This document shows positions 6,320 to 37,593 of a stretch of DNA of 39,826 nucleotides, piece after piece. Origin of the DNA: a candidate division FCPU426 bacterium. Its GTDB lineage: Bacteria; Oederibacteriota; JAUXIB01. Under the pieces are notes generated by a model that saw only the letters and a program-made list of their open reading frames with translations, ran no database searches and was not told where the DNA came from. Location: positions 1-39,826 of the forward strand of contig JAUXIB010000004.1 of the NCBI GenBank assembly GCA_030621225.1, in the 5' to 3' direction. The first letter of the stretch is position 1, and the number at the start of each line of letters is the position of its first letter. The translations under genes were made by a program, and so were the position numbers.

Positions 6320-6426
6320 GGGCCACGGGGGTTTTTCTTTGTGGCTTCATACAATTATATTAGCATTCACCCCTGACAAAAATGGGTAAGCGCGGTAAAA
6401 TAGTTTGAGTATTTAAAGTGACCCCC

Positions 6427-6529
6427 CCCATTTTTGTCAGGGGGCGATGTTAACATGGTATTGGGGGCTCCGGACGCCGGAGGCGTCCCCGTGGTTCCCT
6501 ACCGTCGGATATTATGAGAGGGAATCACC
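6427..6529 (+). repeat. Repeat block C: CCCATTTTTGTCAGGGGG, extended -10-like TGnTAAyAT, then a double-hairpin segment
   Basis: Copies at 6427-6529, 8521-8612, 12918-13010 and inverted at 32299-32400. The 17-bp head is also present as a perfect inverted copy at 6370-6386. Confidence 0.9.
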
Positions 6530-6686
6530 GTACGTGCCGTGCATGTCCTTCATAGCTGGCGTTTTCGTCGGTTGAAGTAATGCAGAAGAAAACGCTAACG
6601 AAGAAGGACGAAACACAAACAAGGGGGAATGAGGGACGGGGCGTAGTTGATCAGGCAACTCATCAAGAAAAAGAATAGCAGAAATT

Positions 6687-8159
6687 ATGAAATCAATTTC
6701 CAAGTCAAAATATATCTCCGGGCTTAAGTGCCCCAAGCTGCTCTGGTACCTATACAACGCCAAGGATGAAATCCCTGCTTTCGACGCGGCGACCGAGGCC
6801 AGGTTCGCTGGCGGCCATGAAATAGGCGAATGGGCGAAGAAGCTCTACCCAGGCGGCATTGAGGTGGCCTACGATCCTGATAGTTACGAGGCGATGATCA
6901 AGCAGACGAAAGAGCTCTTGCCCCAGCGGATACCAATATTCGAGGCGACACTTGAGCATCGGGGCGCCTTCGCCCGGGCGGACGTACTTGTCCCGGTGGG
7001 CGAGGATCAGTGGGATATGATAGAGGTGAAGTCCTCTACCAAGGTGAAAGACTATCACTATGACGATATGGCGGTGCAGGCATATATCTTCAAGGGCGAA
7101 GGGCTGAAGATAAGGAAGTGCATGTTAGCGTGTGTGAATAATCAATACGTGCGTCAGGGTGATATCGATCCGGCACAACTGCTCAAGCAAGAAGAGCTGA
7201 CCGAGGCGGTTGAGGAGAAGCTTGCCGGGGTTGCGGATAAGCTCAAAGAAATGCAGGAGATCATCAAGCTGAAGAAGTGCCCGGACACTAAGATCGGCAA
7301 ACACTGCGATATGTTTCATAGCTGCCAGATGGAAGAGGTCTGCTGGGGCTTTCTGCCCAAGCATAATGTCTTTACCCTGCGGAGCATCGGGGCAAAAGCA
7401 TACGAGCTCTTTGAGCAGGGGGTGCTGGATGTCGCTGATATTCCCGAGGAATTCTCGCTTAGCGATAAGCAGCAGATCCAGTTAGCAGCGATACGCAGCG
7501 GCCAGGCCCAGGTGGACAAGCTGGGATTACAGGAGTTCTTGGGGCAGCTAAAATATCCGCTCTATTTTTTGGATTTTGAAACGGTCTGGCCGCCGCTGCC
7601 GCTGTTCGATGGGGTTCGTCCCTACCAGCAGATCCCTTTTCAGTTCTCGTTGCATGTCCGTGAGAGCGAGGGCGCTGAGCTTCGACATCATTCCTATCTG
7701 GCAGAGGGCGGGGACGATCCAAGACAGGAACTGGCTGAGAAGCTGAAACCGCTGATGGGGGATAAGGGTTCTGTACTCGCGTTCAACGCCCGGTTTGAAT
7801 GCTCCCGCTTGCAGGAACTGGGTGAAGCTTATCCCGAATACGCGGCCTGGGTGGAAACGATCCTGGCCCGGGTGGTGGATTTGATCGTGCCCTTTAGAAA
7901 ATTTCATTATTATCACGCTTGCCAACTTGGTTATGCTTCGCTCAAGAATATTCTGCCCGCTTTCGATAAAAAAGCTTACCAGGATATGGCTATTGCTGAT
8001 GGTGGTACCGCTAGTAGTGAGTACGCTCGTGTGACGTATGGTGATGATGTTGCTCAGGAAGACCGTGCCAAGGTTCGCGAAGATTTGGAGGCCTACTGCG
8101 CACTTGATACGTTGGCTATGGTACGACTGCTGGATGGTTTGCAGGAACTTGTAAAGTAG
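6687..8159 (+). CDS. DUF2779-type RecB/Cas4-like nuclease with RNase H-like C-terminal domain
   Basis: ISKSKY..GLKCPKLLW; ARADVL..IEVKSST (PD-(D/E)xK); C..C..C cluster; YFLDFET..PYQQIPFQFSLH; YCALDTLAM. Confidence 0.85.
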   Translation: MKSISKSKYISGLKCPKLLWYLYNAKDEIPAFDAATEARFAGGHEIGEWAKKLYPGGIEVAYDPDSYEAMIKQTKELLPQRIPIFEATLEHRGAFARADVLVPVGEDQWDMIEVKSSTKVKDYHYDDMAVQAYIFKGEGLKIRKCMLACVNNQYVRQGDIDPAQLLKQEELTEAVEEKLAGVADKLKEMQEIIKLKKCPDTKIGKHCDMFHSCQMEEVCWGFLPKHNVFTLRSIGAKAYELFEQGVLDVADIPEEFSLSDKQQIQLAAIRSGQAQVDKLGLQEFLGQLKYPLYFLDFETVWPPLPLFDGVRPYQQIPFQFSLHVRESEGAELRHHSYLAEGGDDPRQELAEKLKPLMGDKGSVLAFNARFECSRLQELGEAYPEYAAWVETILARVVDLIVPFRKFHYYHACQLGYASLKNILPAFDKKAYQDMAIADGGTASSEYARVTYGDDVAQEDRAKVREDLEAYCALDTLAMVRLLDGLQELVK

Positions 8160-8250
8160 CTGCCCTTCTTTTTTCTCCAAAAGTGCCATGTTTTGACTGT
8201 TCTGCTGATGCAAGTATTCCAGACGTAGGGGCGGCTCGCGAGCCGCCTAA

Positions 8251-8864
8251 GGGTATGATGACGAACCAAGCGGTGGAAAATATTACCGTAGGGGAGGGGC
8301 GGAGTTTACCCGACATAGCCTTGGCGACGGCGGGCGCCCTCCCCCATGCCTCGAAGAGGCATGGCCAAGAGGGGGTGATTCGCTAGGAACAGATTGCCTG
8401 CTAGTAGGGCCGTGGGCTAGGATGAGGGCGAAGATGGGAGTTGTCCATTTTTGCCTGCCCTGCGAAGCGCGCGCTTTCATCGACTGAAGTAATGAACGGG
8501 AAAGCGTGAACGAAGAAGGGTCAGGGGGCGATGTTAATATGTTATTAGGGCTCCGGACGCCGGAGGCGTCCCCGTGGTTCCCTACCGTCGGATATTATGG
8601 GAGGGAATCACCAGTAGGGGCCGCACAAAACACAAACAAGGGGTGAGGTTACGTGTCGCGGGGGAGGCATGTCTTTTTTTTGTCTAATTTTTCTTGAAGA
8701 TGTAGTTTATATCTGGCACAATTGCTTTAACAATTGAGGGGCGGTAGGGGGAGCGAGGGCCTTTTCGCTTACCAATATCTGTGGGTGCGGTCTTGGCGTA
8801 AATGTCAAATATCACTTGTCCATCGTAGTCTAGCCGAAGACGGAAGACCTGGCCCCGTCATCTT
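8251..8864. repeat. About 600-bp mosaic intergenic block duplicated at 12737-13324
   Basis: Shared GGTATGATGACG..AAAATATTACCGTAGGGGAGGG, CCATGCCTCGAAGAGGCATGG, block C and ..AATGTCAAAT..AGACCTGGCCCCGTCATCTT; copies differ by small inserts. Confidence 0.9.
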
Positions 8865-9059
8865 ATTTAATCAGGAAATATACCGGAAACGCCGATAAAG
8901 GGGATCGGAAGAATATTCAAAATAAGTAGCTATAAAACGGTGTCATCGATGATAGTTCGAGACGAGAAGGAGTTAATGAAGGACGAAAAGGGTTAAAAGG
9001 ATCAAATCTCGATTGAATGATATAATTAATAAACGGTAAATACGGAATGCGAAGACCCC
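8864..9059 (+). pseudogene. Decayed C-terminal DnaA-like HTH tail, probably of a RAYT/HUH-type transposase, ending at a GACCCC terminal motif
   Basis: Across two frameshifts reads YLIRKYTG/TPIKGIGRIFKISSYKTVSSMIVRDEKELMKDE/RVKRIKSRLNDIINKR*. The 3' part is repeated at about 17616-17681 plus 17919-17946. Confidence 0.55.
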
Positions 9060-10649: not shown

Positions 10650-10745
10650 AAGGGACAGTGTCTTCCTACTTCGCTGAAGCTTCGTAGGACAGGAGAATTG
10701 TGGCATGCGAAAGGTGAAAAAATTCTCGATTCTAGACGCGGTCCC
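10650..10745. mobile_element. Mini-element formed by two inverted copies of the GGGAC..GTCTAGAATT terminal repeat
   Basis: Left AAGGGACAGTGTCT[30-bp insert 10664-10693]AGAATTGTGG; right GATTCTAGACGCGGTCCC. Further copies at 16637, 20176-20204 (inverted) and 28794. Confidence 0.65.
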
Positions 10746-12509: not shown

Positions 12510-12573
12510 GGGTTGATTAAGGGGTAGAAGGACAAGAGGCTACGTAGGACAGGCAAGCTTCGTAGGACAAGTA

Positions 12574-12701
12574 GCTAGACAAGTTAACTGGTAGTAACAA
12601 GGGTGTTCTCGGCGAGCACCTTTTGTTTTAGGCGCGTTCTGCTACATTCATTCCGAAGAGCCTTTCTGTACATTTTTCTTTTGGTAACCCCCCTATTTTT
12701 G
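12574..12701. terminator. Repeat block D containing a terminator-like hairpin (consensus AAAGGTGCTC-loop-GAGCACCTTTT)
   Basis: Copies at 12574-12701, 14800-14940, 27510-27584 and 36061-36203, each downstream of a + strand gene. Confidence 0.75.
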
Positions 12702-12736
12702 CCTGCCCTGCGTAGCGCCTTGTGTTACACCTCTGG

Positions 12737-13324
12737 GGTATGATGACGGATCAAGCGGTAGAAAATATTACCGTAGGGGAGGGCCTCTGCGCCCTCCCCC
12801 ATGCCTCGAAGAGGCATGGCCAAGAGGGGGGCGAAGATGGGAGATGCCCATTTTTGCTTGCCCTTCGTAGCCCCTGCGGCTGCTTGTTAGCAGACAAGCG
12901 CAGGGGCGGAGTAGGGTCAGGAGGGCGATGATAATATGTTATTTGGGGCTCCGGACGCCGGAGGCGTCCCCGTGGTTCCCTACCGTCGGATATTATGAGA
13001 GGGAATCACCGTACGGGCAGCGCATGTCCTTCATAGCTGGCGTTTTCGTCGGTTGAAGTAATGCAGAAGAAAACGCTAACGAAGAAGGACAAAACACAAA
13101 CAAGGGGCGAGGTTACGTGTCACGGGGGAGTTATAGCTTTTTTGTCTAATTTTTCTTGAAGATATAATTTACATCTGGCACAATTGCTTTAACAATTGAG
13201 GGGCGGTGGGGTAGCGGGGGCTTTTCGCTTACCAATATCTGCGGGTGCGGTTTTGGCGTAAATGTCAAATGTCACTTGTCCGTCGTAGTCTAGCCGAAGA
13301 CGGAAGACCTGGCCCCGTCATCTT
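12737..13324. repeat. Second copy of the 8251-8864 mosaic block
   Basis: Direct alignment by eye; also shares 12918-13107 with 6438-6628. Confidence 0.9.
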
Positions 13325-13419: not shown

Positions 13420-14715
13420 ATGTTTAACCCTTTTGGTAAATACTTCAGGGATTTGAAGGCAAAGGATCTGGAGATTCTCAAGGACAAGCAAGTAGCTGAG
13501 GGATGGCATGTTGAATACAAGGAAAGCAGACAGAAGGCGGAGAAAGTTGCCAAGTCTGTCTCATCGTTTGCCAACTCGCGAGGAGGAATATATTTTGTGG
13601 GCATTCAGGCCGATGATGATAACCGGTGTAAGAAAGTAGTCGGTGTTGAGGACTCGCCGGATGTGATAAGGGACTGCGTTAAAGGGCACATACAGCCTTT
13701 CCCATATTTCGAGACATTCGCTGTGAAACTAGTCAACAATATGAAAGTTCTAATAGTGGTAGTGCCAGAGAGCAAGACTCCTCCGCATATTCATTCTGAC
13801 GGAAGAATCTACGTTCGACAAGAAGCGGCTTCGGATCCTGTCTTTCAGAGTGATAGACATGTTATTGATGGTCTATATTCTAGGGCAGAATCGTGGCGGA
13901 AGGATCTTCAGGACTTCAGAACAATGGACTACGAATTATGCCAAGGGGAGAGCAATCAGCCCTATCTTCAGATCTTCATGAATACGGTGCCATATAAGCA
14001 TTTCATGATGAGCGACCTGTTTAAGGGCGAAGAGATAACGAAAATGCTAGCCCATTTTCACAAAGGCTATGAGATATCAGAAACGATAGATGGTAAGAAC
14101 GTGCCTTTCAGGGGGAATATCACATTAGATACCGTGAATACTTACCACAATAGTGTGGCTTTGAGGTATTTGAACGGAAGCGACATTTCTCGCAATGGAT
14201 TGACGGTAGAGGTGGATATTCATGGCAACACAAAGGTGCTTCTGCCTTTGGAATACACAACCTATGATAATCTTGAGAAGGAGGACGAGCTGTTCCAGCG
14301 TTACCATATTAAGTTAAGCAAATCGAACTTGGTTGCCGTGGATACCATAAAGTTCATCAACGTGAAAACACTATACGGTGCAATACTGGGACTGTTTGTG
14401 AAGGTCTCGAAGTACCTGAAAGACAGAGGCTATGAAGATACTCTAGAGGTAAAGATGAGATTGAGTGATTCGTGGCGAACGACGCTATACTGCGCCAGCG
14501 AAACATTTGTGTTCTATATAGAAGAGTGGGGAGTCCCTATCTGTATGAAGAATGACCAGTATTTTCCGGAATATGATCTTATCGTCAAGTTATCAGAGCT
14601 GAAGGCGAAGCCCATCACTCAGACTGCCCTTCTTTTTGCCCCGGTGGCCTCAGCGTTGGGCATGACAGGTTCCATAGCTACTCAAGCTGTGATTCAGACG
14701 CTTGCGAAGAAATAG
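13420..14715 (+). CDS. AlbA_2/Schlafen-like domain protein
   Basis: EGWHVEYKES, VSSFANSRGGIYFVGI, VVVPESKTPPH..GRIYVRQ N-terminal signature. Confidence 0.8.
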   Translation: MFNPFGKYFRDLKAKDLEILKDKQVAEGWHVEYKESRQKAEKVAKSVSSFANSRGGIYFVGIQADDDNRCKKVVGVEDSPDVIRDCVKGHIQPFPYFETFAVKLVNNMKVLIVVVPESKTPPHIHSDGRIYVRQEAASDPVFQSDRHVIDGLYSRAESWRKDLQDFRTMDYELCQGESNQPYLQIFMNTVPYKHFMMSDLFKGEEITKMLAHFHKGYEISETIDGKNVPFRGNITLDTVNTYHNSVALRYLNGSDISRNGLTVEVDIHGNTKVLLPLEYTTYDNLEKEDELFQRYHIKLSKSNLVAVDTIKFINVKTLYGAILGLFVKVSKYLKDRGYEDTLEVKMRLSDSWRTTLYCASETFVFYIEEWGVPICMKNDQYFPEYDLIVKLSELKAKPITQTALLFAPVASALGMTGSIATQAVIQTLAKK

Positions 14716-14799
14716 GTGAACAGAAAGAGGGGGTCACTTATGAAAAAGCATGTCAAGCACGAAATGACGAAGGAATAGAGGAAGAGGGAACAGGCTTAA

Positions 14800-14955
14800 G
14801 CTAGGCAAGTTGACTTGTAGTAACAAAGGTGCTCTCGGTGAGGACCTTTTATTTTAGGCGCATTCTGCCATATTCATCCCAAAGATCTTTCCTATATCTT
14901 TTTTCATCTTTTTTTCAGCAAACCCCCATTTTGGTCAGGGGGAGGTGCTACGATA
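14800..14955 (+). promoter_or_regulatory. Block D terminator followed by a CCCCATTTTGGTCAGGGGG..TGCTACGAT extended -10 module
   Basis: Same arrangement recurs at 36061-36216 (TGGTAGGAT). Confidence 0.55.
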
Positions 14956-14979
14956 GTTAGGTAAAGAAAGGAGGATGAT

Positions 14980-15855
14980 ATGGAGCGAATGCACTTGAAC
15001 CAGCAGGGATCCTTTGATAGTCTTATTGAGGAAAGAGTGTTTGAATTAAGGAGAATGCGGATGAAGAAGTGGATTAATGGAATTCATTGTGGAGATTGTC
15101 TCGAGCTAATGAGGAAGATGCCCGAGAAGTGTATAGACCTGGTCGTTACGTCACCCCCCTATAATTTAAGAAACTCAACGGGGAATGGTATGAAGGACGG
15201 TCGTGGAGGTAAATGGGAAAAAGCCAGGTTGATAAACGGTTATGAAGAGCATGACGACAAAATGCCGCATGATAAATATGTGAGCTGGCAGAGAGATTGT
15301 CTAGCAGAAATGATGCGTCTGCTTAAGGATGATGGAGCTATATTTTATAACCACAAATGGCGTGTCCAGAAGGGAAAGTTGCAAGACAGACAGGACATTG
15401 TTGGTGATTATCCCGTTAGGCAGATAATTATCTGGCAGCGCAATGGCGGGATCAACTTTAATGCTGGATATTTCCTGCCTACATATGAGGTGATTTATCT
15501 AATAGCCAAACCAAAGTTTAGGCTCGCAAAAGGAGCAAATAAAATTGGTGATGTATGGTCAATACCTCAAGAAATGAATAATGAACACCCCGCTCCTTTT
15601 CCGGTGGAATTGATAGAAAGATGTATTGGCTCTACTAAGGCGAAGATCGTTTTAGATCCGTTTATGGGAAGTGGGACGACCGCTGTAGCGGCAGTTAATC
15701 TTGGCAGAAAATGGATTGGTTTTGATCTTTCTAAAACTTACTGCAAAATGGCGATGGAGCGTTTGGCAGAGAAGAAAGGATTAAATGATTCGCCATCTAA
15801 AGAAGTCCGAGCTAGAAGTAAAGTTAAAGGAAGTCATCGGCTTAGGTTGGCATGA
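14980..15855 (+). CDS. Beta-class amino-methyltransferase (SPPY, probably N4-cytosine)
   Basis: DLVVTSPPYN precedes HPAPFP and VLDPFMGSGTT; alternative start at 15061. Confidence 0.9.
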   Translation: MERMHLNQQGSFDSLIEERVFELRRMRMKKWINGIHCGDCLELMRKMPEKCIDLVVTSPPYNLRNSTGNGMKDGRGGKWEKARLINGYEEHDDKMPHDKYVSWQRDCLAEMMRLLKDDGAIFYNHKWRVQKGKLQDRQDIVGDYPVRQIIIWQRNGGINFNAGYFLPTYEVIYLIAKPKFRLAKGANKIGDVWSIPQEMNNEHPAPFPVELIERCIGSTKAKIVLDPFMGSGTTAVAAVNLGRKWIGFDLSKTYCKMAMERLAEKKGLNDSPSKEVRARSKVKGSHRLRLA

Positions 15856-16561
15856 TGTTTCAAGGTTTTCTGGCTCGGGAAGAGCGGGGGTCTTGTTAGA
15901 ACATTTGCTGGGTATTGAGGGGGGGAATTATGATTTACCAGACGCAGTTGGACACGAACTTAAGACGTCTCTTTCCTCCACTACGTTGGTTACGTTATTT
16001 CATAAGGATCCTAAGCCGCGAAAACCAAGTGTGGTTAAAGCACTCGTCGATGGTTTTGGCTGGGAGCCAACTCACAAAGACAAGTATCCGAGTGGAACTT
16101 TAAGCTTTAGGCACACGATTCACGGCAAGTCAGATAGAGGGTTCTCAGTTATTGTCGATGATGAGAAGATATCCATTGCTTTTCGTCCAGAGGATGTAGA
16201 CGCGAAGCACCGCGAATGGTTGGATTTAGTGTATAAAAGAACGAAGGGTCGTCTTGACCCATGTCCATACTGGACTGTCGACGAGATAGTATCCGCAGCA
16301 TCCTCGAAGTTGAGAAACTGTATTTTTGTAAAAGCAGTACAAGATAAGCCACAGAAGATGGTGAAGTATACAAACGCGTATTTTCTTGCTAACTTTAAGC
16401 CTATGTTCTTCCTTAAGTGTATCAAGGAAGGAAGGGTAGCCATTGACTTTGATGCAAGAACGAAAGGCAAAACAGTGAGAAACCACGGAACGAAATTTAG
16501 GATAAAAGAAGAGTATTGGCCGCACTTGTTTGAGAGTCAAGAGGAGCTGACCATACCTTAG
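15785..16561 (+). CDS. MvaI/BcnI-family type II restriction endonuclease
   Basis: G.AG.LLE.LLGI...N...PD....ELKT, VTLFHKDP, RNHGTKFRI; overlaps the MTase end. Confidence 0.8.
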   Translation: MIRHLKKSELEVKLKEVIGLGWHDVSRFSGSGRAGVLLEHLLGIEGGNYDLPDAVGHELKTSLSSTTLVTLFHKDPKPRKPSVVKALVDGFGWEPTHKDKYPSGTLSFRHTIHGKSDRGFSVIVDDEKISIAFRPEDVDAKHREWLDLVYKRTKGRLDPCPYWTVDEIVSAASSKLRNCIFVKAVQDKPQKMVKYTNAYFLANFKPMFFLKCIKEGRVAIDFDARTKGKTVRNHGTKFRIKEEYWPHLFESQEELTIP

Positions 16562-16707
16562 GGGGTGGGTGGCGCAGTGAATTCATCTAGTTTTGTAGGC
16601 ACCTTGTCCTGAGAAAACTATTTTGGGGTGATAAACGGACCGCGTCTTCCTCCTCCGTTTTACTACGGCGCGACTGGAGAATTATGACATATTAAGGAGC
16701 TTATTGA

Positions 16708-17619
16708 ATGTCCCTCGAAGCATCCCGCGAAATCCAAATCCGTATGAAAGCCTTCGCTTGGCTCAAGGAGAGAGCTATTGGGAATGAGGGCGTTTTTCAT
16801 TCCAGCGAGCTCAACGATTTCAAGGTTGATGGGAAGAGGATTACTCTAAAGGGATCAAGAGGGATATGGCAGCCCAAAGGTTGGGAGCTGCCGATTTCGA
16901 TTACCACCGCGGCAGATGGACCCTATGAGGATGTTGTCTCGGATGACGGTTTGATTCTTTACAAGTATCAAGGAACGAATGCCCAGCAGTGGGACAACGT
17001 TGGTCTGCGCAAAGCGATGCAGCAGCATGTTCCACTGATATACTTCCACGGTATTTCCCGAGTGAAGGGAAGACATGTCGCGATTTGGCCGGTGTTTATT
17101 GTGGGGGATGATCCTGCGAGCTTAACCTTCACAGTTGCTGCTGATGATATGTCAGCGCTGGATCAGGCGACTGAGAATGGTTTTGCTGAAGAGAACACTG
17201 GACGTCGGCAATACATCACAGCTACCGTGCGGCAACGCTTGCACCAACGCTCTTTCCGTATTCGTGTTCTGGATGCTTACCGCGAACGCTGTTCCCTGTG
17301 CAACCTAAGACATCCGGAGCTCCTTGACGCAGCACATATCATCCCTGACGGCCAACCAGGAGGCGATCCGATAGTTCCAAACGGTCTGTCCCTTTGCAAA
17401 ATTCACCACGCTGCCTTTGACAGAAACTTCTTGGGCATTACTCCTGACTATAATATTGATGTCCGAGCGGATATCCTGAAAGAGAATGACGGTCCCATGC
17501 TCCAGCACGGGCTGAAAGAACTGCATGAGAAGAAAATTATTCTGCCTAGGCGGAAGGATGATAGACCTAAGCCGGAGTTGCTTGAGAGAAGGTATGCAGA
17601 GTATAAACAAGTTGGATGA
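16708..17619 (+). CDS. HNH endonuclease with N-terminal SRA-like domain (putative modification-dependent REase)
   Basis: PYED....LI.YKYQG....DN.GLR.AM....PLIYF; RLHQRSFR..VLDAY..RCSLC, LDAAHI, NGLSLCKIHHAAFD. Confidence 0.8.
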   Translation: MSLEASREIQIRMKAFAWLKERAIGNEGVFHSSELNDFKVDGKRITLKGSRGIWQPKGWELPISITTAADGPYEDVVSDDGLILYKYQGTNAQQWDNVGLRKAMQQHVPLIYFHGISRVKGRHVAIWPVFIVGDDPASLTFTVAADDMSALDQATENGFAEENTGRRQYITATVRQRLHQRSFRIRVLDAYRERCSLCNLRHPELLDAAHIIPDGQPGGDPIVPNGLSLCKIHHAAFDRNFLGITPDYNIDVRADILKENDGPMLQHGLKELHEKKIILPRRKDDRPKPELLERRYAEYKQVG

Positions 17620-17681
17620 AGGACGAAAGGGTTAAAAGGATCGAATCTCAATCGAATCTCGATTGAATGATATAATTAATA

Positions 17682-17923
17682 AGAATCCCCGGGCTAACAC
17701 CCGCGGTATTCTTGTCCCGAACGGTCGCCGGCAGGCGACCACAAGTTTTTCCTCCTTCGAATATGAAAAAGAAAAGCTTCTATTGCGTCCGCTTCCTCCT
17801 ACGCTAACCTACTTCGCACTTCGTGCTACGAAGGTCAGGAAGCTATGGAGGACAAGAAAGCGAACGATATATAACGCTTCCTCCACGAGCTTACGCTCGT
17901 GGTATTCGTGCGCAACGGAATAA
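17682..17923. mobile_element. Non-autonomous IS200/IS605-like insertion with nested palindromic repeats
   Basis: Interrupts ..ATTAATAA^ACGGTAAAT.., which is intact at 9025-9041. Subterminal hairpins CCCCGGGCTAACACCCGCGG and CCACGAGCTTACGCTCGTGG, each followed by TATTC. Confidence 0.6.
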
Positions 17924-18007
17924 ACGGTAAATGCGGAGACTTGACCCTGACCCTCGGAGTATACGTTGGTGAATGAGCGGATAGACAAGTAGCGGGGAGA
18001 AAGCAGA

Positions 18008-19144
18008 ATGGACTATGGACGAGGTCTGAACGATAGACTGTCTTTGTGCCTGGATAAGTTCAGTATATTCGTAGAGAAGGAAAACGGTACGCCGCTAGAA
18101 CAATTCAGTTCCCATCGTTATGTAGTTGAATATGAGAACTACAAGACGATACTTCGGCTGGACGCCAGGGATAAATTGCTGTATTGGCAGTGGGAAAGTG
18201 AGTCTTTCGGAAGTGGTTTGATTCTCGAGAATCTTATAGGTGCAATTGAAATAGACGAGAACAATTTCTTCCGATGGAGGGAGAAGCGCGTTGGGCTCAA
18301 GGGGATAGCTCATCGAAGGTTGGTTGAGCTGAGAGGGGGATCGGATGACCTAGCAGAATTCGAAAAGAAGACATACCTATTCTTCAAAGATGAATGTTCG
18401 CATAAACATTACTTTGACTATCTAGTGGAGACTATCGGTAGGAAGTACTCGCTACTAGCATATATCTTCTTTCTCAAGGATTCTGAAAAGTACCTCCCGA
18501 TTTCTACCACTAACTTTGATAGACTTTTCATTGATCTTGACGTACCTATCACGACCAACAGAAATTGTTCGTGGGAGAACTACCAGGAGTTTCTCGGGTT
18601 CATAGCTCATGTGAGGGAGTTTTTGGGCACAAAAGGCCGTGGTGAGATATCTCTACTTGATGCGCACTCCTTCTGTTGGATTCTCACAAAGCAAATGAGG
18701 AAAAAGGCCGAAGAGCTGCCGTTTCTCAAGGGAGCGATGGGTGCGGGGACCGGGGAGAACCGAATATCTACAACCACTGCAAGAATAGGACAGGATCGTT
18801 TTCGAAAGCACCTGATCGCTCTGTGGGGCGAGAAATGCTCGATATCAGACTACGATAATCTGAAGTTCCTTACTGCGTGTCATATAAAGCCTTGGAATGA
18901 TTCAACTAGTGAGGAGAAGGGTGATCCCGACAATGGACTTCTGCTTACCCCGTGTTACCATGAACTGTTTGATAAGGGCTACATAAGCTTCGATGATGAT
19001 GGAGGAATAGTGCTGTCGAAGAAACTGATGACAGATGATGTGGACTCGCTGAGCATTGATAAGTCTGCGAAGTTGAGACAGGAACTGACGATTGACCAAA
19101 AGCGTTACCTTGAATTCCATAGAGAGAACATATATAAGTCCTAG
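18008..19144 (+). CDS. HNH endonuclease
   Basis: C-terminal RIGQDRFRK.LI..W...CSIS, ACHIKPW, DPDNGLLL..YHELFDKGYISF, YLEFHR. Confidence 0.85.
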   Translation: MDYGRGLNDRLSLCLDKFSIFVEKENGTPLEQFSSHRYVVEYENYKTILRLDARDKLLYWQWESESFGSGLILENLIGAIEIDENNFFRWREKRVGLKGIAHRRLVELRGGSDDLAEFEKKTYLFFKDECSHKHYFDYLVETIGRKYSLLAYIFFLKDSEKYLPISTTNFDRLFIDLDVPITTNRNCSWENYQEFLGFIAHVREFLGTKGRGEISLLDAHSFCWILTKQMRKKAEELPFLKGAMGAGTGENRISTTTARIGQDRFRKHLIALWGEKCSISDYDNLKFLTACHIKPWNDSTSEEKGDPDNGLLLTPCYHELFDKGYISFDDDGGIVLSKKLMTDDVDSLSIDKSAKLRQELTIDQKRYLEFHRENIYKS

Positions 19145-19163
19145 CGAATAGTGACTGAGCTTT

Positions 19164-20156
19164 ATGCCTACTAGTAGATATAGAAAACTATCAGACTTCA
19201 TTCGCAACCAGATGCGGATGTCGCATGTCTATCAGCCGGTAATGCTGATTGAGTTGTTGAAGCATGAGGGCAAGGCTTCGGTGCGGCAGATTGCCAAGGC
19301 GTTATCGGGGCAGGATCTCTCTCAGATTGAATACTACGAGCAAATTACCAAGAATATGGTGGGTCGGGTGCTTACTAAGAATCGGGGGATCACTGATAAG
19401 CAAGAGAACAACTACCACATAAAGGGTTTTGACCAGCTCTCGCCGGCTGAGATCAAGCAGTTGGTTGAGTTATCGATGCAGCGCTTGGATGAATACGTGG
19501 CCAAGCGAGGCAAGGACATCTGGTCGCACCGGCGCAAGTCGAGCGGCTACATATCTGGAACCAAGCGTTATGAAGTGTTAAAGAGAGCCAAGTTTTGCTG
19601 TGAACTGTGTGGCATCTCTGCTCGCAAAAAGGCGTTGGAGGTGGATCACATTGTGCCGCGAAGCAAGCAGGGATCCGATGATATCTCGAATCTTCAAGCG
19701 TTGTGTTACAGCTGTAATGCCATGAAGCAGAATCGGGACGACACCGACTTTCGTGGCATCGAAAGACGCTACAAGGAAAGAACTCCCGGCTGTGTCTTTT
19801 GCGACCTGCCCAAAAAGCGGATCATTGGCGAGAACGAACTGTGCTTAGCAATGCGTGATAAATATCCAGTGACCGAGTTACATTCGTTAGTTATTCCCAA
19901 ACGGCATGTGCGCGAATACTTTGGATTATTCCAGCCGGAGCTAAATGCAGTTAACTCCTTGTTGGTAGAACTGAAGAAAGATATCGCGAAGCGTGATGAT
20001 ACAGTGACTGGCTTTAATATTGGGGCAAACTCTGGGCCTGATGCCGGGCAGACCATTTTTCACTGTCACATCCATCTGATTCCAAGAAGGAAGGGCGATG
20101 TAAAGAATCCGCGCGGGGGAGTGAGGGGAGTGATTCCGGAGAAGCAAGGGTATTAG
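19164..20156 (+). CDS. Fusion: N-terminal helical/wHTH-like domain + HNH nuclease + HIT hydrolase
   Basis: CELCG..LEVDHIVP..NLQALC..CNAMK; then CVFC, DKYPVT..HSLVIPKRH, AGQTIFHCHIHLIPRR. Confidence 0.88.
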   Translation: MPTSRYRKLSDFIRNQMRMSHVYQPVMLIELLKHEGKASVRQIAKALSGQDLSQIEYYEQITKNMVGRVLTKNRGITDKQENNYHIKGFDQLSPAEIKQLVELSMQRLDEYVAKRGKDIWSHRRKSSGYISGTKRYEVLKRAKFCCELCGISARKKALEVDHIVPRSKQGSDDISNLQALCYSCNAMKQNRDDTDFRGIERRYKERTPGCVFCDLPKKRIIGENELCLAMRDKYPVTELHSLVIPKRHVREYFGLFQPELNAVNSLLVELKKDIAKRDDTVTGFNIGANSGPDAGQTIFHCHIHLIPRRKGDVKNPRGGVRGVIPEKQGY

Positions 20157-20484
20157 TGTAAGTAGTGTGTGATGAAAAAGTCGCAATTCTAGACGCGGTC
20201 CCTTAATTTTATACGTAGAGGAGCACCACTGCGTGCTCCCCCATGCCTCAAAGAGGCATGGCTAAGGGTGAGTTTTTTCGATTGAACACGTAGGGGCAGC
20301 CCATGCCTGTCACACCTGCGAAAGCATGTCCTCATGAAAACGGGGATAGGTGTCCAATACAAAAGGGGAGGGTGTGGGTGAAGGAAGCCAGGAGTGGGGG
20401 TGAAGAAGGGCGTGCAATAAATGTCAGAGGTGGGGCGAAGGGGACAAGTCTAAAACTGTCTATCGACTAAATTAAGGAGGCACC

Positions 20485-21081: not shown

Positions 21082-21083
21082 TT

Positions 21084-22553: not shown

Positions 22554-22563
22554 AGGGGGAATA

Positions 22564-22752: not shown

Positions 22753-22755
22753 ACA

Positions 22756-24783: not shown

Positions 24784-24788
24784 AATCC

Positions 24789-24873
24789 GGAGGGTTGGCC
24801 GAGTGGTCTAAGGCGGCGACTTTATAAGTCGTTGGGCAGAAGTGCTCCGGGGGTTCGAATCCCTCACCCTCGG
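24789..24873 (+). tRNA. tRNA-like gene: class II (long variable arm) Ser-type body with TAT anticodon; G1:G72 mismatch; no encoded CCA
   Basis: GGAGGGT/ACCCTCG acceptor; GCC-GAGTGGTCTAA-GGC D arm; GCGAC-TTTATAA-GTCGT anticodon arm (TAT at 24823-24825); GGGCA-GAAG-TGCTC variable arm; GGGGG-TTCGAAT-CCCTC T arm; G73. Confidence 0.85.
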
Positions 24874-25059
24874 ATCTAATGAAGGGACCGAGGTTTAGTG
24901 GGGCGAGGATCATACTTGACTTGATAAAAACATTCTTGAAGTGCCCGTTTTTGTCCGGTGCTCGTGTTAGTATAGTTCATAGTTTAGATGATTGCGTTAA
25001 GGTCTTAGTCGTCGACACAAAGAGTGGAGTAACTCATCAATCTCAGATATAATGAAGCC

Positions 25060-26454
25060 ATGAGTGGAACCGTAGCCGACAAGAAGAGATTACTGAAAGT
25101 AACCGCTGCCAATCTTAAGCGAGGCAAGTTGAGCATAACCGGGAATTATGACTTTTTCCCGGCAAGATCCCTCAGGATTCATCTTAAGGGATTGGATGAT
25201 ACTATTACGACCCATGTAAGCCATGGTCCGAATGGGAAACCTGATGGATATCTTGATGGTACGGAATGGGTGCGGCGCTTCTATGAATATCATAAGATTA
25301 GAACAGGGGACATCCTCGCTCTTGAAAAAAACGGCAATGGCACTTATCGATTGTATTCCTTTGAGGCAAAGCCGGAGAGACATGGCGATTGGCATCGATT
25401 CGTACACAAGCCTTTGCGGGGCAAGGGTCCCACGATATTAGAGCTCTTTGCGGGATGTGGTGGATTGATCCAGGGCTTTAAGAGAGCAGGTTTCAGAACT
25501 GTGTTAGCAAACGAATGGGATGCGTCTGCCGCAGAAACAATCAGAGCTAACCTAACGGAAAGAGTGGCGCAATGCGCCGTGCAGGAGATAAAGAAGTTTC
25601 CCTCTGTTGATGTTGTGGCCGGCGGACCGCCGTGCCAAGGTTTTAGCAATCTTGGGGAGAGAGTGCCCTGTGATCCTCGACGACAACTATGGCGACATTT
25701 TATGAGAGCGGTTGGAGAAGCGAGTCCCAGGGCTTTTGTGATGGAGAACGTCCCGCCGCTTCTTTCGTCTCAGGAATACGTTGAGATAAAGAAGATAGCT
25801 ACTGAGCTAGGATACAACGTGGCGGGAAAGATACTGAACACTGCTGATTATGGTGTGCCACAAGTTAGAAAACGGACGATAATCATAGGATTGCAGGAGG
25901 GCACTCCGTCGTTCCCCGAGCCTACACATGTGAATCCAGCCAAGAAAGACCTCTTGAATAGCGAACTTCCCCCGTGGCAAACTGTCAGAGATGCCATCGG
26001 CGATCTTCCCTTTGAACCGGACGGTAGAAATTGGCATATTGGACGAAATCCTACCGATAAATCCAAGAAGAGATATAGGTGCATACCCGCAGGAGGTAAT
26101 CGATGGGATCTTCCGAGACATTTGATGCCCGACTGCTGGAAAAGAAAGACGAAAGGCGGAACGGATCTTTTTGGTCGCTTGTGGTGGGATCGTCCCTCGG
26201 TAACGATACGGACGGAGTTTTACAAACCGGAAAAGGGAAGATACTTGCACCCTGAAGCTCATCGACCGATCACTCATCGTGAAGCCGCGAGATTGCAGGG
26301 GTTCCCGGATGACTTTGATTTTAAGGGTAGTAAGATTAAAGTTGGAATTCAAATTGGTAATGCAGTTCCCCCTCTTTTAGCAGAGGCAATCGCCAAACAT
26401 GTCGCTAAGTTGATTGCAGTAAGGAAGCCTGCCGAGTTGGTTGCATCAGGATAA
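25060..26454 (+). CDS. DNA (cytosine-5)-methyltransferase with an N-terminal extra domain of about 115 aa
   Basis: ELFAGCGG (I), GGPPCQGFS (IV), MENV (VI), YGVPQVRKR (VIII), REAARLQGFPD and QIGNAVPP (IX-X). Confidence 0.95.
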   Translation: MSGTVADKKRLLKVTAANLKRGKLSITGNYDFFPARSLRIHLKGLDDTITTHVSHGPNGKPDGYLDGTEWVRRFYEYHKIRTGDILALEKNGNGTYRLYSFEAKPERHGDWHRFVHKPLRGKGPTILELFAGCGGLIQGFKRAGFRTVLANEWDASAAETIRANLTERVAQCAVQEIKKFPSVDVVAGGPPCQGFSNLGERVPCDPRRQLWRHFMRAVGEASPRAFVMENVPPLLSSQEYVEIKKIATELGYNVAGKILNTADYGVPQVRKRTIIIGLQEGTPSFPEPTHVNPAKKDLLNSELPPWQTVRDAIGDLPFEPDGRNWHIGRNPTDKSKKRYRCIPAGGNRWDLPRHLMPDCWKRKTKGGTDLFGRLWWDRPSVTIRTEFYKPEKGRYLHPEAHRPITHREAARLQGFPDDFDFKGSKIKVGIQIGNAVPPLLAEAIAKHVAKLIAVRKPAELVASG

Positions 26455-26470
26455 ACAATAAGATTACGCG

Positions 26471-27451
26471 ATGGCAAAAAGGCGGCCCCAAAAAGGTGTA
26501 AACGAGCTGATTGCGTATATTGACCGAGAGTTGAGAAAATTCGGCAAAGTGCGTAAGGGTGTTTCTCTGCGAAATAATGTAATTGCCTTGGCGAGGTTGC
26601 GCCAAGCGTTAGATGATCTTGGAGTTAGTACGTTGGCGGAAGGTGGGATATCCGCCAAAGGAGCAAGAGAGCGAATAAAGTTATACATGCGCGAGTATGT
26701 CGGTGAAGTTATTGAGAGCGTTGAGCTTGAGGTAGTCACGGGTATCTCAGAATATGCGCGAAGAATTCGAGAACTTAGGGTTCAATTCGGCTATCATATA
26801 GCATCCGGGGCTTCCCCTGATCCGCATTCCGAGGTGGATCTACGACCGGATCAATACATTCTTGTTGATGGGGAACCTGATCAGGATGCAGCGCGGAGGT
26901 GGGGGATAGTCAACAGAATTAGGCGAGGCAAAGGCGGCAGCAAAGATAAAATTCTACAGTTTTTGAAAGAGAATGTTGGAAAAGTTGTTACGACGGAAGA
27001 ACTTGCCTACGTTGCTAATAAAGTCAAAAATTACCCTCGCCGAATCAGAGAGCTCAGAACCGAAAGTGGTTATTCGATAGCTACCAGGTTAACCGGACGC
27101 CCGGATCTAAAAGTTGGCCAGTATGTATTGCTGTCCGCCGAGAGAATCGCCGAACCGCACGATAGACAAATCCCTGATGAAATACAAAAGACTGTATATG
27201 AACGAGATAAAAGTAAATGTAAAGTTTGTGGGTGGACTCAAGACCGCTGGTCCAAAAGAGATCCAAGAATACTTGAACTTCACCACTTGGAACACCATAA
27301 GGAAAAAGGTTCCAATAGGGAGGAAAACTTGACGGTCATCTGCAGTAAGTGCCACGATGAAGTACATTCGGGGAAACACAGAGGTGTTGTCGACAAGATA
27401 AAGAAAGCACTATGTCGGACGTATTCTCGAAGAAAAAAAGATCGGAGATAA
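26471..27451 (+). CDS. HNH endonuclease with two wHTH-like repeats; probable cognate REase
   Basis: Repeats VGEVI...EL.....YARRIRELR..FGY and VGKVV...EL.....YPRRIRELR..SGY; CKVCG..ELHH..N....L..IC..CH. Confidence 0.85.
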   Translation: MAKRRPQKGVNELIAYIDRELRKFGKVRKGVSLRNNVIALARLRQALDDLGVSTLAEGGISAKGARERIKLYMREYVGEVIESVELEVVTGISEYARRIRELRVQFGYHIASGASPDPHSEVDLRPDQYILVDGEPDQDAARRWGIVNRIRRGKGGSKDKILQFLKENVGKVVTTEELAYVANKVKNYPRRIRELRTESGYSIATRLTGRPDLKVGQYVLLSAERIAEPHDRQIPDEIQKTVYERDKSKCKVCGWTQDRWSKRDPRILELHHLEHHKEKGSNREENLTVICSKCHDEVHSGKHRGVVDKIKKALCRTYSRRKKDRR

Positions 27452-27561
27452 TGAGTCGCATCCGCGGCCCGGGCACTAAGCCGGGGGCGAGGGTCATACC
27501 TTCGATGGTCAAGTTAACTTGTAACAACAAAGGTGCTCTCGGAGAGCACCTTTTGTTTTAG
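27412..27561 (+). pseudogene. vsr: Truncated very-short-patch-repair endonuclease
   Basis: MSDVFSKKKRSEIMSRIRGPGTKP is the classic Vsr N-terminus. Homology ends near 27483 and the frame runs into repeat block D. Confidence 0.85.
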
Positions 27562-27582
27562 GCGCATTCTGCCATATTCATC

Positions 27583-27672
27583 CCTGAGCATTTTATGTTT
27601 CGCTTAAATCGGGAAGAAACCACGGCTTTGAGATGCCAATCTGGCATCTCAAAGAAAGGCAGAGGCGGGCGA
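27583..27672 (+). pseudogene. Internal fragment of an ORF6N-domain gene
   Basis: PEHFMFRLNREETTALRCQSGISKKGRGGR aligns with FPEDFMFELTKDEARVLRSHFATSKKGRGGR of 36953..37471. Confidence 0.8.
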
Positions 27673-27715
27673 AGTCTCTGGAATGTTTCACATTGCGTAT
27701 TTTGGCCTAGCTGTG

Positions 27716-27886
27716 ATGTCCAAGAGTCGTAGAAGCGAGATAGCCAAGGGTGCAGCGCTCAAGAGATGGAGTAAGCGATCAGAGGCAAAAAAGCGCAATC
27801 TATCCCGCAGAATATCGCTGGATTCCCGCCAAGAGAAAAGCCATAGCCAGGAAGGTGGCTATGGCCGATGGAAAAACGCCAAATAG
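27716..27886 (+). pseudogene. Fragment of a small basic 'RRSEIA.KAA..RW' family gene
   Basis: MSKSRRSEIAKGAALKRW; no clear RBS. Confidence 0.4.
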
Positions 27887-27895
27887 ATAGTATGG

Positions 27896-28270
27896 TTACC
27901 GCATGTAGGAAGACGCTATGTTACTGTCCCACAGTGGAATCGTGTAGAATTCTTCCCACCTCTTTTCCTTGCACAATGCAAATACCGATTGAGCAGCCCT
28001 CTCTTTGAACCACCTCTTTGCCTGCATTCGGGCTTCTTTCTGCTTAACCTTCTGTTTCATTTCTGCCATGAACTCGCTAAGGTGCACTACGGTAAGCCCC
28101 ACCATTCTCTTTGATTTGACTTCATAGTGGAACGCCATGAATTCGTCAACTTCCCTGGTGGCGATTGGATAGTTTATTTTAGAAATTCGGGTAGTCATTG
28201 TGTTTGATTTATGGTCTATCCGAATGGTTATGTATTCTTTCCCTATCTTTTTCCTTACTACCGTTGCCAT
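27896..28270 (-). CDS. DUF2283-like putative antitoxin
   Basis: ITIRID...NTM..RIS....TREVDE.....Y......MVGLTV; overlaps the upstream toxin-like gene. Confidence 0.5.
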   Translation of the reverse strand: MATVVRKKIGKEYITIRIDHKSNTMTTRISKINYPIATREVDEFMAFHYEVKSKRMVGLTVVHLSEFMAEMKQKVKQKEARMQAKRWFKERAAQSVFALCKEKRWEEFYTIPLWDSNIASSYMR

Positions 28271-28793: not shown

Positions 28794-28946
28794 AAGGGAC
28801 CGCGTCTTCCTCCTCCGCACCTTCGGTGCTACGGCGAGACCAGCCTTCGCCACAGCTTCCGCCGTCGCTCTCCGAGCTATGGCGAGACAAGTCGGCTTGG
28901 CAGACAGGAGAACCCTTCGACTATCTCAGGGCAGGTTGTGACTTTT
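28794..28946. repeat. Terminal-repeat copy AAGGGACCGCGTCT^AGAA^TTGTGACTTTT split by nested palindromic inserts
   Basis: Removing 28808-28908 and 28913-28935 restores the reverse complement of 20177-20204 (1 mismatch). Confidence 0.8.
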
Positions 28947-28988
28947 TGGTGATACCATCTGTAGTCTGCTGTATGTTTTCCTCTATGC

Positions 28989-33456: not shown

Positions 33457-33460
33457 GGGA

Positions 33461-35926: not shown

Positions 35927-36060
35927 TATTTTTTCTGCGATGAGCGGGTTGACGAGGGGACTGCGGAATGGGGGGGCAGGTCTCCGCATTCCGCATTGAG
36001 GTCTTGGCATAGGATGATGACGTTCAACCTCTGGGGTTGACACCCCAGAGGTTGAACGGC

Positions 36061-36216
36061 GCTAGACAAGTTAACTTGTAGCAATAAAGGTGCTCTCGGT
36101 GAGCACCTTTTGTTTTAGGCGCATTTCGCTACATTTACCCCAAAAATCCTTTCTGTATCTTTTTTCATCTTTCTTTTGGCAAACCCCCGTTTTTGTCAGG
36201 GGGTGGTGGTAGGATA
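36061..36216 (+). terminator. Block D terminator plus extended -10 module
   Basis: AAAGGTGCTCTCGGTGAGCACCTTTT, then CCCCCGTTTTTGTCAGGGGGTGGTGGTAGGAT. Confidence 0.7.
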
Positions 36217-36255
36217 AATTAAGGGGTTATTCAGTATAAACAAAAGGAGAGACCA

Positions 36256-36723
36256 ATGAGCGACAAAGCGGCATCAAAATGTTGGATCTGCGAAGAAGTC
36301 TACAAGCGGCAGCGGAATGGCGCGGGGCAATGCCTCGCCTGCGGTAACTGGTTCTGTGGCGAGGAACACGGTTTGATTGACTATCACGGGGAGGATTATT
36401 GTATTTCTTGTTATTGGACTCTTCTAAGCACGGGGGATATCTCACCAAGAACTGATGTGAAGAAGGCCCAGGCGGCAGAGGAAGAGGAATGCTGGATATG
36501 CCGCGAGGTTTTAGCGCGCGAGCGGAAAGGCGATGTGAAGTGCGCAAAGTGCGGCAGAAATTGTTGTGGTGCCGAACACGTTGACTTTGACGCCAAGGAC
36601 GATGATTTTTGTCTCTCGTGCCACTTTGATGAGACCGGCGGCCCCTTCAAGGGTGATTTCTACGTTCTCACAGAGAACGGGGAAATCCCGATCCCCGGTC
36701 CACGAAGTAAAACTAACGTTTAA
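36256..36723 (+). CDS. Small protein with two tandem Cys/His zinc-binding repeats
   Basis: CWIC..C..CG..(F/C)CG.EH..C.SC twice; RBS AAGGAG. Confidence 0.75.
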   Translation: MSDKAASKCWICEEVYKRQRNGAGQCLACGNWFCGEEHGLIDYHGEDYCISCYWTLLSTGDISPRTDVKKAQAAEEEECWICREVLARERKGDVKCAKCGRNCCGAEHVDFDAKDDDFCLSCHFDETGGPFKGDFYVLTENGEIPIPGPRSKTNV

Positions 36724-36952
36724 CCTCTGGGGTGTTAACCCCGGGGTTAGGGTCCACAGGTGAGTTATTCAAAATAGTTTTCCTGACCCCCATTTTTGCC
36801 TGCCCTTCGTAGCTCCTGCGTCTGCTTGTCAGCAGATAAGCGCAGGGGCGGAGTAGGGTCAGGCTTGTCTTGCCGTAGTCTCTGACGACGGCTGAGGGTG
36901 ATGGTAATATAGACTCAGGGGCAGGGAAGATGTTTTAGTAAAGGGGGAGAAT

Positions 36953-37471
36953 ATGAATAGAGAGATCATTCCGAGGGAGACTATTGAGAGAAGAATATTC
37001 TTAATCCGTGGCAAAAAGGTGATGCTGGACAGTGATTTGGCCGAGTTATATAGCGTGCCTACGAAACGGCTTAATGAGCAAGTTCGTCGCAATAGTGTTA
37101 GGTTCCCGGAGGACTTTATGTTCGAATTGACAAAAGATGAAGCGAGAGTTTTGAGGTCGCATTTTGCGACCTCAAAGAAAGGGCGTGGAGGTAGGCGCTA
37201 CAGGCCTTACGCATTCACAGAACAAGGTGTAGCTATGTTATCGACTGTTTTGAAAAGCGAGCAAGCGATAAAGATCAATATTGAGATCATGCGTGCCTTT
37301 GTGCAGTTACGGTACTTGCTTTCATCTAACGCTGACCTTAAACGCAAAGTCGAGGCGATAGAGTTAAAATATGATGCTCAATTCGCAATAGTGTTCGATG
37401 AACTTCGCCACTTGAAAGTTCCGCCTCTTCGCAAGAAACGACCTATTGGTTTTCGCTCATCTGGAGAGTGA
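36953..37471 (+). CDS. ORF6N-domain DNA-binding protein
   Basis: IRGKKVMLDSDLAELY.V.TKRLNEQVRRN..RFPEDFMF, PYAFTEQGVAMLS.VL.S, RPIGF. Confidence 0.92.
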   Translation: MNREIIPRETIERRIFLIRGKKVMLDSDLAELYSVPTKRLNEQVRRNSVRFPEDFMFELTKDEARVLRSHFATSKKGRGGRRYRPYAFTEQGVAMLSTVLKSEQAIKINIEIMRAFVQLRYLLSSNADLKRKVEAIELKYDAQFAIVFDELRHLKVPPLRKKRPIGFRSSGE

Positions 37472-37593
37472 AACGATGTATAGGGGCCAGGTCCCCGTAC
37501 CACTCGTTCTCTCGGGTTCAGGGCAAGCCCCGAACCACTCATGCTAATGCCTTCGGGTTCAGGGCAAGCTTTTCTGTTCTGTGCATTTTGGTG

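Follow-up and report, generated by a model that had tools for sequence, protein, structure and literature searches.

The repeats described here find their closest published counterparts in the TIRYTs and TIRtrons, which Di Nocera et al. defined in 2013 and whose terminal inverted repeats (TIRs) carry a GGGGWSAS motif (PMC3733652). The same paper describes moderately abundant TIR families that have no transposase and occur as single copies, dimers and clusters. Quentin et al. (2018, PMC6006769) state that subclass 2.1 of the TnpA-Y1 enzymes, with tails of Bac_DnaA_C-like or helix-turn-helix (HTH) type, "probably corresponds" to the TIRYTs. Here we analyse a stretch of 39,826 nt, "the window" throughout, which is the complete contig JAUXIB010000004.1 (C217) of GenBank assembly GCA_030621225.1, a 2.60 Mb draft genome (G000; 266 contigs, 89.6% complete) of an uncultured candidate division FCPU426 bacterium. 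An earlier note had read positions 6370..37495 as an integrase-free array of cassettes, pointing to a class of enzymes with a C-terminal HTH and GGGG(A/T)(C/G)A(C/G)-type ends; that class is recognisable as the TIRYTs/TIRtrons with their GGGGWSAS motif. We think it likely that end-repeats associated with TIRYTs or RAYTs (REP-associated tyrosine transposases), together with REP-like mosaics, colonised the long spacers of a defence island, and that the repeats mark the gaps between transcription units, not the borders of cassettes.

The likeness to a TIRtron is threefold: the product of a Y1/HUH gene of the genome, R3, has a C-terminal tail with a weak, sub-threshold match to Bac_DnaA_C and may thus carry an HTH; the gene lies between inverted repeats starting GGGGWSAS; and TIR copies without a transposase occur as singles, dimers or clusters. 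The differences are that at least three TIR sub-families exist here alongside several Y1 genes, that the TIR elements are built of modules, hairpin units having been inserted next to the TIR, that the TIRs are concentrated at two defence loci while one sub-family, TIR-G, has no assembled cognate gene, and that the shared core, most often GGGGTCAGGTCT, appears to span 12 nt and thus to be longer than the 8-nt motif in the published account. The REP/BIME or REPIN-RAYT systems (REPtrons) of E. coli and Pseudomonas are similar in having short intergenic repeats tied to a single-copy Y1 enzyme flanked by its own repeats, hairpin-forming doublets and clusters of mixed modules, and the Y1 gene R4 and the GTAG REPs of window 4-311 represent a canonical case; the motifs in 6370..37495, in contrast, do not have the GTAG-plus-palindrome form and are TIR-type ends rather than self-complementary REPs. 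BOX elements of pneumococcus and the intergenic mosaic elements of Neisseria are likewise modular non-coding mosaics of few box types with variable internal units. To our knowledge those elements have no dedicated Y1 enzyme, whereas the outer boxes here match TIRYT ends.

Three long motif families in the window are genuine dispersed repeats, GGGACCGCGTCT (TIR-G), AGACCTGGCCCC (TIR-B) and AATGCGGAGACTTGACCC (TIR-C), and they occur in it as follows.

8812..8856, minus: TIR-B end that reads GGGGCCAGGTCT on the minus strand and carries an inserted module, forming the 3' boundary of duplicated block M2
10652..10745, no strand: TIR-G doublet, a degenerate GGGACAGTGTCT with an internal hairpin module plus an inverted short-form copy ending AGACGCGGTCCC, together a 94-nt REPIN-like hairpin
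13272..13316, minus: second TIR-B end, with homology to the 8812-8864 copy ending 8 nt past the TIR
16636..16688, plus: TIR-G long form, CGGACCGCGTCT, a 30-nt inserted module and AGAATTATGAC, adjoining the ribosome-binding site of the first HNH gene
17914..17948, minus: TIR-C end that reads GGGTCAAGTCTCCGCATT on the minus strand, where a mosaic of about 330 nt has its 3' edge
20180..20202, minus: TIR-G short form, the exact 23-mer, starting 24 nt past the stop codon of the HNH-HIT gene
28796..28950, plus: TIR-G in its long form, containing several hairpin modules; its end is placed approximately
35969..36020, plus: TIR-C end and about 35 nt resembling the leader upstream of Y1 gene R5 (contig C83)

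The TIR-G 23-mer GGGACCGCGTCTAGAATTGYGAC matches 20180-20202(-) without mismatch and 10723-10745(-) with three, while shuffled sequence gave no match; its 12-nt core GGGACCGCGTCT is found with at most one mismatch at 16636(+) and 28796(+) as well, and with two at 10652(+). In the extended form GGGACCGCGTCT(AGAATTGYGAC) the family occupies 10652 (degenerate), 10734(-), 16636(+), 20191(-) and 28796(+). With these 23-mer and core matches, a terminal repeat of about 30 bp that had been claimed at 10650, 10745 (inverted), 16637, 20204 (inverted) and 28794 holds at every one of the five places; inserted hairpin modules of at least 30 nt split the 23-mer into two halves at 16636, 28796 and 10652. Genome-wide, GGGACCGCGTCT has 21 matches with at most one mismatch, and four of them (contigs C138, C53, C65 and C75), which lie inside long open reading frames (ORFs) and have no flank similarity, look like chance. 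The genuine TIR-G copies number 17 plus the one at 10652, five of them in the window. The other two families were also where they had been reported: AGACCTGGCCCC at 8845 and 13305, two of eight exact copies in the genome, and AATGCGGAGACTTGACCC at 17930, with its inverted relative, placed earlier at about 35970-35989, found at 35973-35990 (eight genome copies with at most three mismatches, two of them in the window).

An alignment of all genomic TIR-G copies reveals a modular element, in which (gaa)GGGACCGCGTCT is the 5' box and AGAATTGTGACTTTTTGG the 3' box, with between zero and several hairpin units in the middle. The insertion of modules, after GTCT or before AGAC, is what distinguishes long from short forms. 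Because a complete 76-nt element on contig C152 runs from GGGGCCAGGTCT to AGACGCGGTCCC, the GGGAC box can be seen as the opposite end of these small elements. At 10652-10745 the doublet folds with -35.2 kcal/mol (z -3.47), which none of 200 shuffles equalled, and the mosaic at 17616-17947 that ends in TIR-C has parts with up to 36 genome copies. The TIR-C end at 35969..36020 is not followed by a Y1 gene, and a tblastn search found no Y1 remnants in the window (best E-value 0.12).

The genome encodes enzymes that would suit such ends. Seven genes (R1-R7) score over the cut-off for Y1_Tnp (PF01797), and every one of their products scores higher on the REP-associated tyrosine transposase model NF047646 than on the IS200 model. 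The catalytic motifs are HUH plus Tyr in R1, R2, R6 and R7, and HYH plus YxHLNP in R3 and R5 (YIHLNP in R3); R1, R5 and R6 are truncated by contig ends. R3 (contig C29, 308 aa) has a C-terminal Bac_DnaA_C match with E 2.9e-4 and 21.2 bits, below the 31.5-bit cut-off, and is bracketed by inverted GGGGTCAGAGCTTGACAT repeats (GGGGTCAG...), with GGGTCAGAGCTTGACAT 50 nt upstream and an inverted copy 24 nt downstream. A Y1/HUH transposase with a DnaA-C-like tail and ends of this kind had been predicted for the genome, and R3, with its weak tail match and inverted ends, fits. An end similar to the R3 type lies upstream of R1, contig C191 starts with a further R3-like gene start behind an R3-type end, and R5 is preceded by GGGGGTCAAGTCTCCGCATT, the TIR-C motif of window 17930(-) and about 35972(+). 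TIR-B differs from the R3-type end at about three positions over GGGGYCAGRKCTTGACAT, and the AGACCTGGCCCC family is a close variant of it. There are near-duplicate pairs among the enzymes, R1/R6 with 89.7% identity over 213 aa and R3/R5 with 61% (contigs C118, C131, C29 and C83). RAYTs are usually described as single copy per family, and the Y1 copies here are more numerous. R4 (contig C248, 150 aa; 90.9 bits on NF047646, cut-off 80) has GTAG-tagged palindromes as flanks, a REP family with 38 copies on 23 contigs, six of which stand at window 32-290 in the following array.

4..311, plus: tandem array of seven 44-48-nt units, six of which fit the GTAG REP core of the R4-flanking family; outside 6370..37495

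This array probably explains the assembly break at the start of the contig.

The link between motifs and enzymes is strengthened by homologues of R3 from other phyla. The species-genome collection holds at least 593 relatives of R3, and we examined the loci of the best 80, from many phyla. A 12-nt core, GGGRYCRNRTCT, lies within 1.5 kb of the gene at 64 of the 80 loci, on both strands at 35, where simple arithmetic would predict about 0.02 chance matches per locus. Counted by variant, the 80 loci hold 95 copies of GGGGTCAGGTCT, 11 of GGGGTCAAGTCT, which is the TIR-C core, five of GGGGTCGCGTCT, two letters off TIR-G, and one of GGGGCCAGGTCT, the TIR-B core. An inverted repeat of at least 14 nt flanks the gene at 36 of the 54 loci with both flanks complete, and 21 of these 36 have the strict GGGGWSAS. 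In G000 the core has 33 matches, 25 of them intergenic, against 10 and none for the reversed control, and TIR-G, TIR-B and TIR-C all fit it. Since the core stands beside R3 homologues in foreign genomes and is intergenic in this one, the three long motifs can be assigned to the ends of the TIRYT/TIRtron type, a class already published.

The window is no richer in repeats than the rest of the genome. By self-comparison of the genome, with ranks taken over the 86 contigs of at least 10 kb and intergenic DNA delimited by a crude gene call, short dispersed repeats make up 14.7% of the genome and 13.0% of the window (rank 35 of 86), and their share of intergenic DNA is 54.1% for the genome, 51.0% for the window and 48.0% for 6370-37495. 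Family-specific TIR patterns have 44 intergenic matches genome-wide (control 3). Copies outside the window adjoin the genes for aspartyl-tRNA synthetase (aspS), thymidylate kinase (tmk), tRNA-guanine transglycosylase (tgt) and Fur, and others have as neighbours a dehydrogenase, serpins, a GH3 glycosidase, an M16 peptidase, AbiD and AbiEi.

The window itself is a defence island by Pfam and PADLOC, with these genes and borders.

Island genes: SoFic; a HigB/HigA-like pair; a DUF2779/Cas4-like nuclease; a SEC-C protein; a GHKL ATPase; AlbA_2; a type II methylase with an MvaI/BcnI endonuclease; three HNH genes, one of them HIT-fused; a PD-(D/E)XK plus RNase H-like protein; an OLD/GajA-like ATPase; Dcm with an HNH endonuclease; ORF6N (PDC-S05); an AAA_14/DUF4143 protein (PDC-S01)
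13420..28270, mostly plus-strand genes: low-GC defence block, with AlbA_2, the type II methylase and MvaI/BcnI endonuclease, the three HNH genes, the PD-(D/E)XK plus RNase H-like gene, the OLD/GajA-like gene, a tRNA, and Dcm with its HNH gene
27896-28270, minus: ORF of unknown function at the right end of the low-GC block
28258-28611: the next ORF, outside the block

Gene GC in 13420-28270 is 42-50%; genome-wide, the median for genes is 53% and the 5th percentile 46%. The spacers are of unusual length: with 22.6% of it intergenic, the contig ranks 84th among the 86 of at least 10 kb. Most window genes are on the plus strand, as had been noted of the co-oriented cargo, but this is ordinary for the genome: the strand bias of 0.78 ranks 53rd of the 86 and falls below the median of 0.81.

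One genome of the same family, G001, was present among the 40 others searched. Its epimerase, HD and DUF2779 genes have 66-74% protein identity to those of the window, and it has some repeat families in common with G000; GGGACCGCGTCT is not enriched in it, having no exact match and, when one mismatch is allowed, 14 matches where the reversed control has 102. At the DNA level G001 showed none of the genes from 20001-39826, and its DUF2779 upstream region, aligned to that of the window, gave no clear common leader. After its epimerase and HD genes, G001 has homologues of the genes that begin contig C88 and lacks the window's content. From this order, the window beyond about 2.3 kb is absent from the matching G001 locus, and we infer that the island is an insertion relative to that locus, the join of C217 to C88 being unassembled. 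Metagenome contigs searched with the flanking HD protein yielded 80 loci, the closest 56% identical, and neither these nor the 40 other genomes included a strain-level relative. A search of sequencing runs with window 12000-21999 listed no run.

Two further observations concern genes of the island. The HNH-HIT protein (19164-20156, plus) had no counterpart fusion in 98 other genomes of the phylum, in which the HIT half alone matched, to stand-alone proteins of about 120 aa. A tRNA gene of 87 nt (24788-24874, plus) begins 4 nt past the OLD/GajA-like stop codon and has a long variable arm of Ser/Leu type; ARAGORN assigns it the anticodon TAT (Ile), and it is the sole tRNA-Ile among the 26 tRNAs of this incomplete genome.

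Apart from the TIRs, the spacers reuse a small set of modules and a promoter-like motif.

6427..6626, plus: promoter-like P motif and the two-hairpin module M1
8520-8636, 12916-13024 and, inverted, 32273-32400: other M1 copies
8251..8864, plus: intergenic mosaic of about 610 nt that precedes the SEC-C gene and aligns collinearly with 12736-13324 apart from insertions or deletions of modules
12573..13324, plus: mosaic spacer upstream of AlbA_2, made of terminator-like M3, M0, a dispersed 75-nt repeat, M1, and M2 ending in TIR-B
14799..14955, plus: module M3, a stem-loop then a T-run, past AlbA_2; relatives at 12573, 27503 and 36060
6372-6385(-), 6428-6441(+), 24945-24958(+), 32386-32399(-), 36187-36200(+): promoter-like motif

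The promoter-like motif, CCCRTTTTTGTCAGGGG-N7-TG-N-TAnnAT, occurs 31 times, spread over 25 contigs, against 2 occurrences of the reversed control. In 25 of 27 cases the gene that follows it has the same orientation, and it also lies upstream of the Y1 genes R1 and R2; its distance from TTGTCA to TAnnAT is only 11 nt, which is odd for a promoter of sigma-70 type. The M1 cores at 6461-6530, 8545-8612 and 12943-13010 (plus) and 32299-32366 (minus) are 92-97% identical, and each M1 copy lies just downstream of the promoter-like motif. M1 may be a small RNA gene rather than a leader, because one copy points against the neighbouring genes. Full-length M1 is confined to C217, with two 49-nt partial matches of 80% elsewhere, on C123 and C43 (queries 6340-6640 and 8160-9066). 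An Rfam search brought only the tRNA to threshold and had no match on the repeats, M1 included, at E up to 1. M3, found after four genes, is terminator-like by its form and position, from which the role is read since its fold is no better than that of shuffles. A "TGGCAC...TTGC" in M2 had been considered as a sigma-54 promoter and was dropped, for its spacing from GG to GC is 9 nt, not the 12 nt of the sigma-54 consensus.

The course of events that we regard as likely would begin with a defence island that is missing from the matching locus of G001, with a core of foreign composition (13.4-28.3 kb) and unusually long spacers. Native repeats would have colonised these spacers and filled them with the same short mosaic repeats that occupy intergenic DNA genome-wide. 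The three long motifs would be terminal inverted repeats of the TIRYT/TIRtron class, of the kind that bracket RAYT-like Y1/HUH genes, present here as lone ends without a transposase, in one case as an inverted doublet, and in modular elements whose hairpin units adjoin the TIR on its inner side. If REP/REPIN-RAYT systems are a guide, the repeats are most likely spread, and kept alike, by Y1 enzymes of this genome that work in trans on single-stranded DNA. The promoter-like motif and the terminator-like stem-loop would be further reused pieces.

Several observations weigh against this account. The TIR families are unevenly spread and are about 8-fold enriched in the window contig, with 8 matches against 0.98 expected from intergenic length (Poisson P ~9e-6); these counts are not independent, two coming from one duplicated block and two from one doublet, and copies elsewhere are under-counted where repeats at contig ends are under-assembled. 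As to whether the motifs are equally frequent in core regions, the answer is divided: the families do adjoin core genes, but they are enriched in this contig. The densest cluster in the genome is likewise at a defence gene, on the 11.5-kb contig C38, with nine TIR matches around AbiD: at about 2474-5091, AbiD (Abi_2) stands between mosaic repeats of about 1.1 kb and about 0.6 kb that hold seven TIRYT-type ends, and two more ends lie some 4 kb off, near 9 kb. TIR-G is absent from the five Y1-gene flanks that are shown in full, the flanks of R1, R5 and R6 being cut by contig ends. M1, M2 and M3 are nearly confined to C217, in 2-4 copies each, which genome-wide colonisation alone leaves unexplained and for which we assume local duplication. 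The TIR-G pair around the three HNH genes has TIRtron geometry, its ends outermost, with 72 nt to the start codon on one side and 24 nt from the stop codon on the other. Finally, activity of a TIRYT is not described in the parts of PMC3733652 and PMC6006769 available to us, and none is shown here either.

The alternative that survives best, although we consider it unlikely, is that the mosaic repeats serve as passive homology, in which recombination between spacer modules (M0-M3 and the TIRs) duplicates, deletes or swaps genes or admits incoming DNA. Such a system would resemble the repeat arrays of Neisseria. It would account for the collinear block of about 610 nt in two spacers before unrelated genes (8251-8864 and 12736-13324, 72-92% identical), for modules M1, M2 and M3 with 2-4 copies on this contig only, and for the long spacers; but the common blocks are explained equally well as duplicated regulatory regions, and no recombinant junction or alternative arrangement was seen, no relative being close enough to show one.

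We regard as quite improbable the view that HUH enzymes of the TIRYT type, acting in trans, mobilise or capture cargo between TIRs and that the island is an integrase-free, integron-like array of defence cassettes. Several findings speak for it: the genome has intact Y1 genes, TIR ends are enriched in the window contig and also flank AbiD on C38, the low-GC block (13.3-28.8 kb in these terms) has a TIR terminus facing it at either end, at 13316 and 28796, and the pair TIR-G(+) 16636 and TIR-G(-) 20202 brackets the three HNH genes with its ends outermost, as in a TIRtron. That this pair, given before as 16637/20204, brackets the three genes in inverted orientation (16636(+)/20191(-)) is correct, and it is the sole pair that brackets genes in this way. 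Yet TIR ends occur in just 8 of the 26 gene junctions of 6370..37495 (8 of the 16 gaps of at least 100 nt), and, bar the HNH pair, left and right ends are not paired around genes; inversion of adjacent copies is in any case expected by chance half the time. On contigs C95, C240 and C38 the two members of a TIR pair have the same orientation rather than an inverted one. An empty site cannot be rebuilt at the HNH block, where the right flank continues M0 while the left flank is without its other half, and genome self-comparison found no window gene duplicated elsewhere with its TIRs. The same TIRs adjoin aspS, tmk and tgt, and in the available parts of PMC3733652 and PMC6006769 movement of cargo by a TIRYT is not described. 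Neither the proposal that the motifs delimit cassettes nor the building and shuffling of the island by an HUH enzyme in the manner of an integron is supported: few junctions have TIRs, orientations are inconsistent, neighbours elsewhere include housekeeping genes, the repeat load is average, the HNH block yields no empty site, and half of the listed motifs are due to chance. In its narrowest form, the idea would be that TIRYT-type ends can carry cargo besides their own transposase. The 3.57-kb segment from TIR-G at 16636 through the three HNH genes to TIR-G at 20202 would then be a non-autonomous element of TIRtron shape, which one of the genome's Y1 enzymes moves in trans, and the clustering of such ends at two defence loci would reflect single-strand, HUH-driven collecting and shuffling of defence genes; this we consider very unlikely.

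The motifs due to chance are the short ones, which had been listed as further delimiters. They are present where they were claimed, but only at the background density of the genome. GTGACCC has 224 genome copies (0.086/kb; window 0.100/kb), GGGGTCAC 79 (0.030/kb; window 0.050/kb), GGGGACAG 88 (0.034/kb; window 0.075/kb), GGGGCCAG 78 (0.030/kb; window 0.075/kb), and the degenerate GGGGWSAS 786 (0.302/kb; window 0.352/kb). The sites 13391, 14730 and 31244 fall in no repeated segment, and the one at 37483 matches the core of the AGACCTGGCCCC family at 11 of 12 positions with differing flanks, so that its membership is uncertain.

A true chromosomal integron, or an attC cluster without integrase, is extremely improbable: the likeness is one of look alone, unrelated and mostly co-oriented genes with repeated DNA between them, while the genome has no Phage_integrase (PF00589) match at 89.6% completeness, no attC architecture with RYYYAAC...GTTRRRY borders was seen in the repeats by a crude scan of little power (0 candidates in the window, and 0 in 100 shuffles too), there is not one site per cassette (8 of 26), no repeat family occurs once per junction across the 26, and the genes are large with promoter-like motifs of their own. 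The integron analogy fails on the defining features that were tested. As a separate matter, the lack of a PF00589 match in G000 extends to tyrosine recombinases of XerC/XerD type, whereas all 14 control genomes match.

The colonised spacers of this island provide an example of a little-studied but published class, in which TIRYT end-repeats appear to have multiplied without their gene, and they do so in a poorly sampled phylum, of which 99 species genomes were searched. The pile-up of TIRYT-type ends at two defence loci of one genome may be of specialist interest. If pairs of TIRs did move cargo, they would represent a new route of defence-gene exchange; nothing here shows movement. The 12-nt core GGGGTCAGGTCT, conserved across many phyla, gives a concrete substrate for a first biochemical test of a TIRYT.

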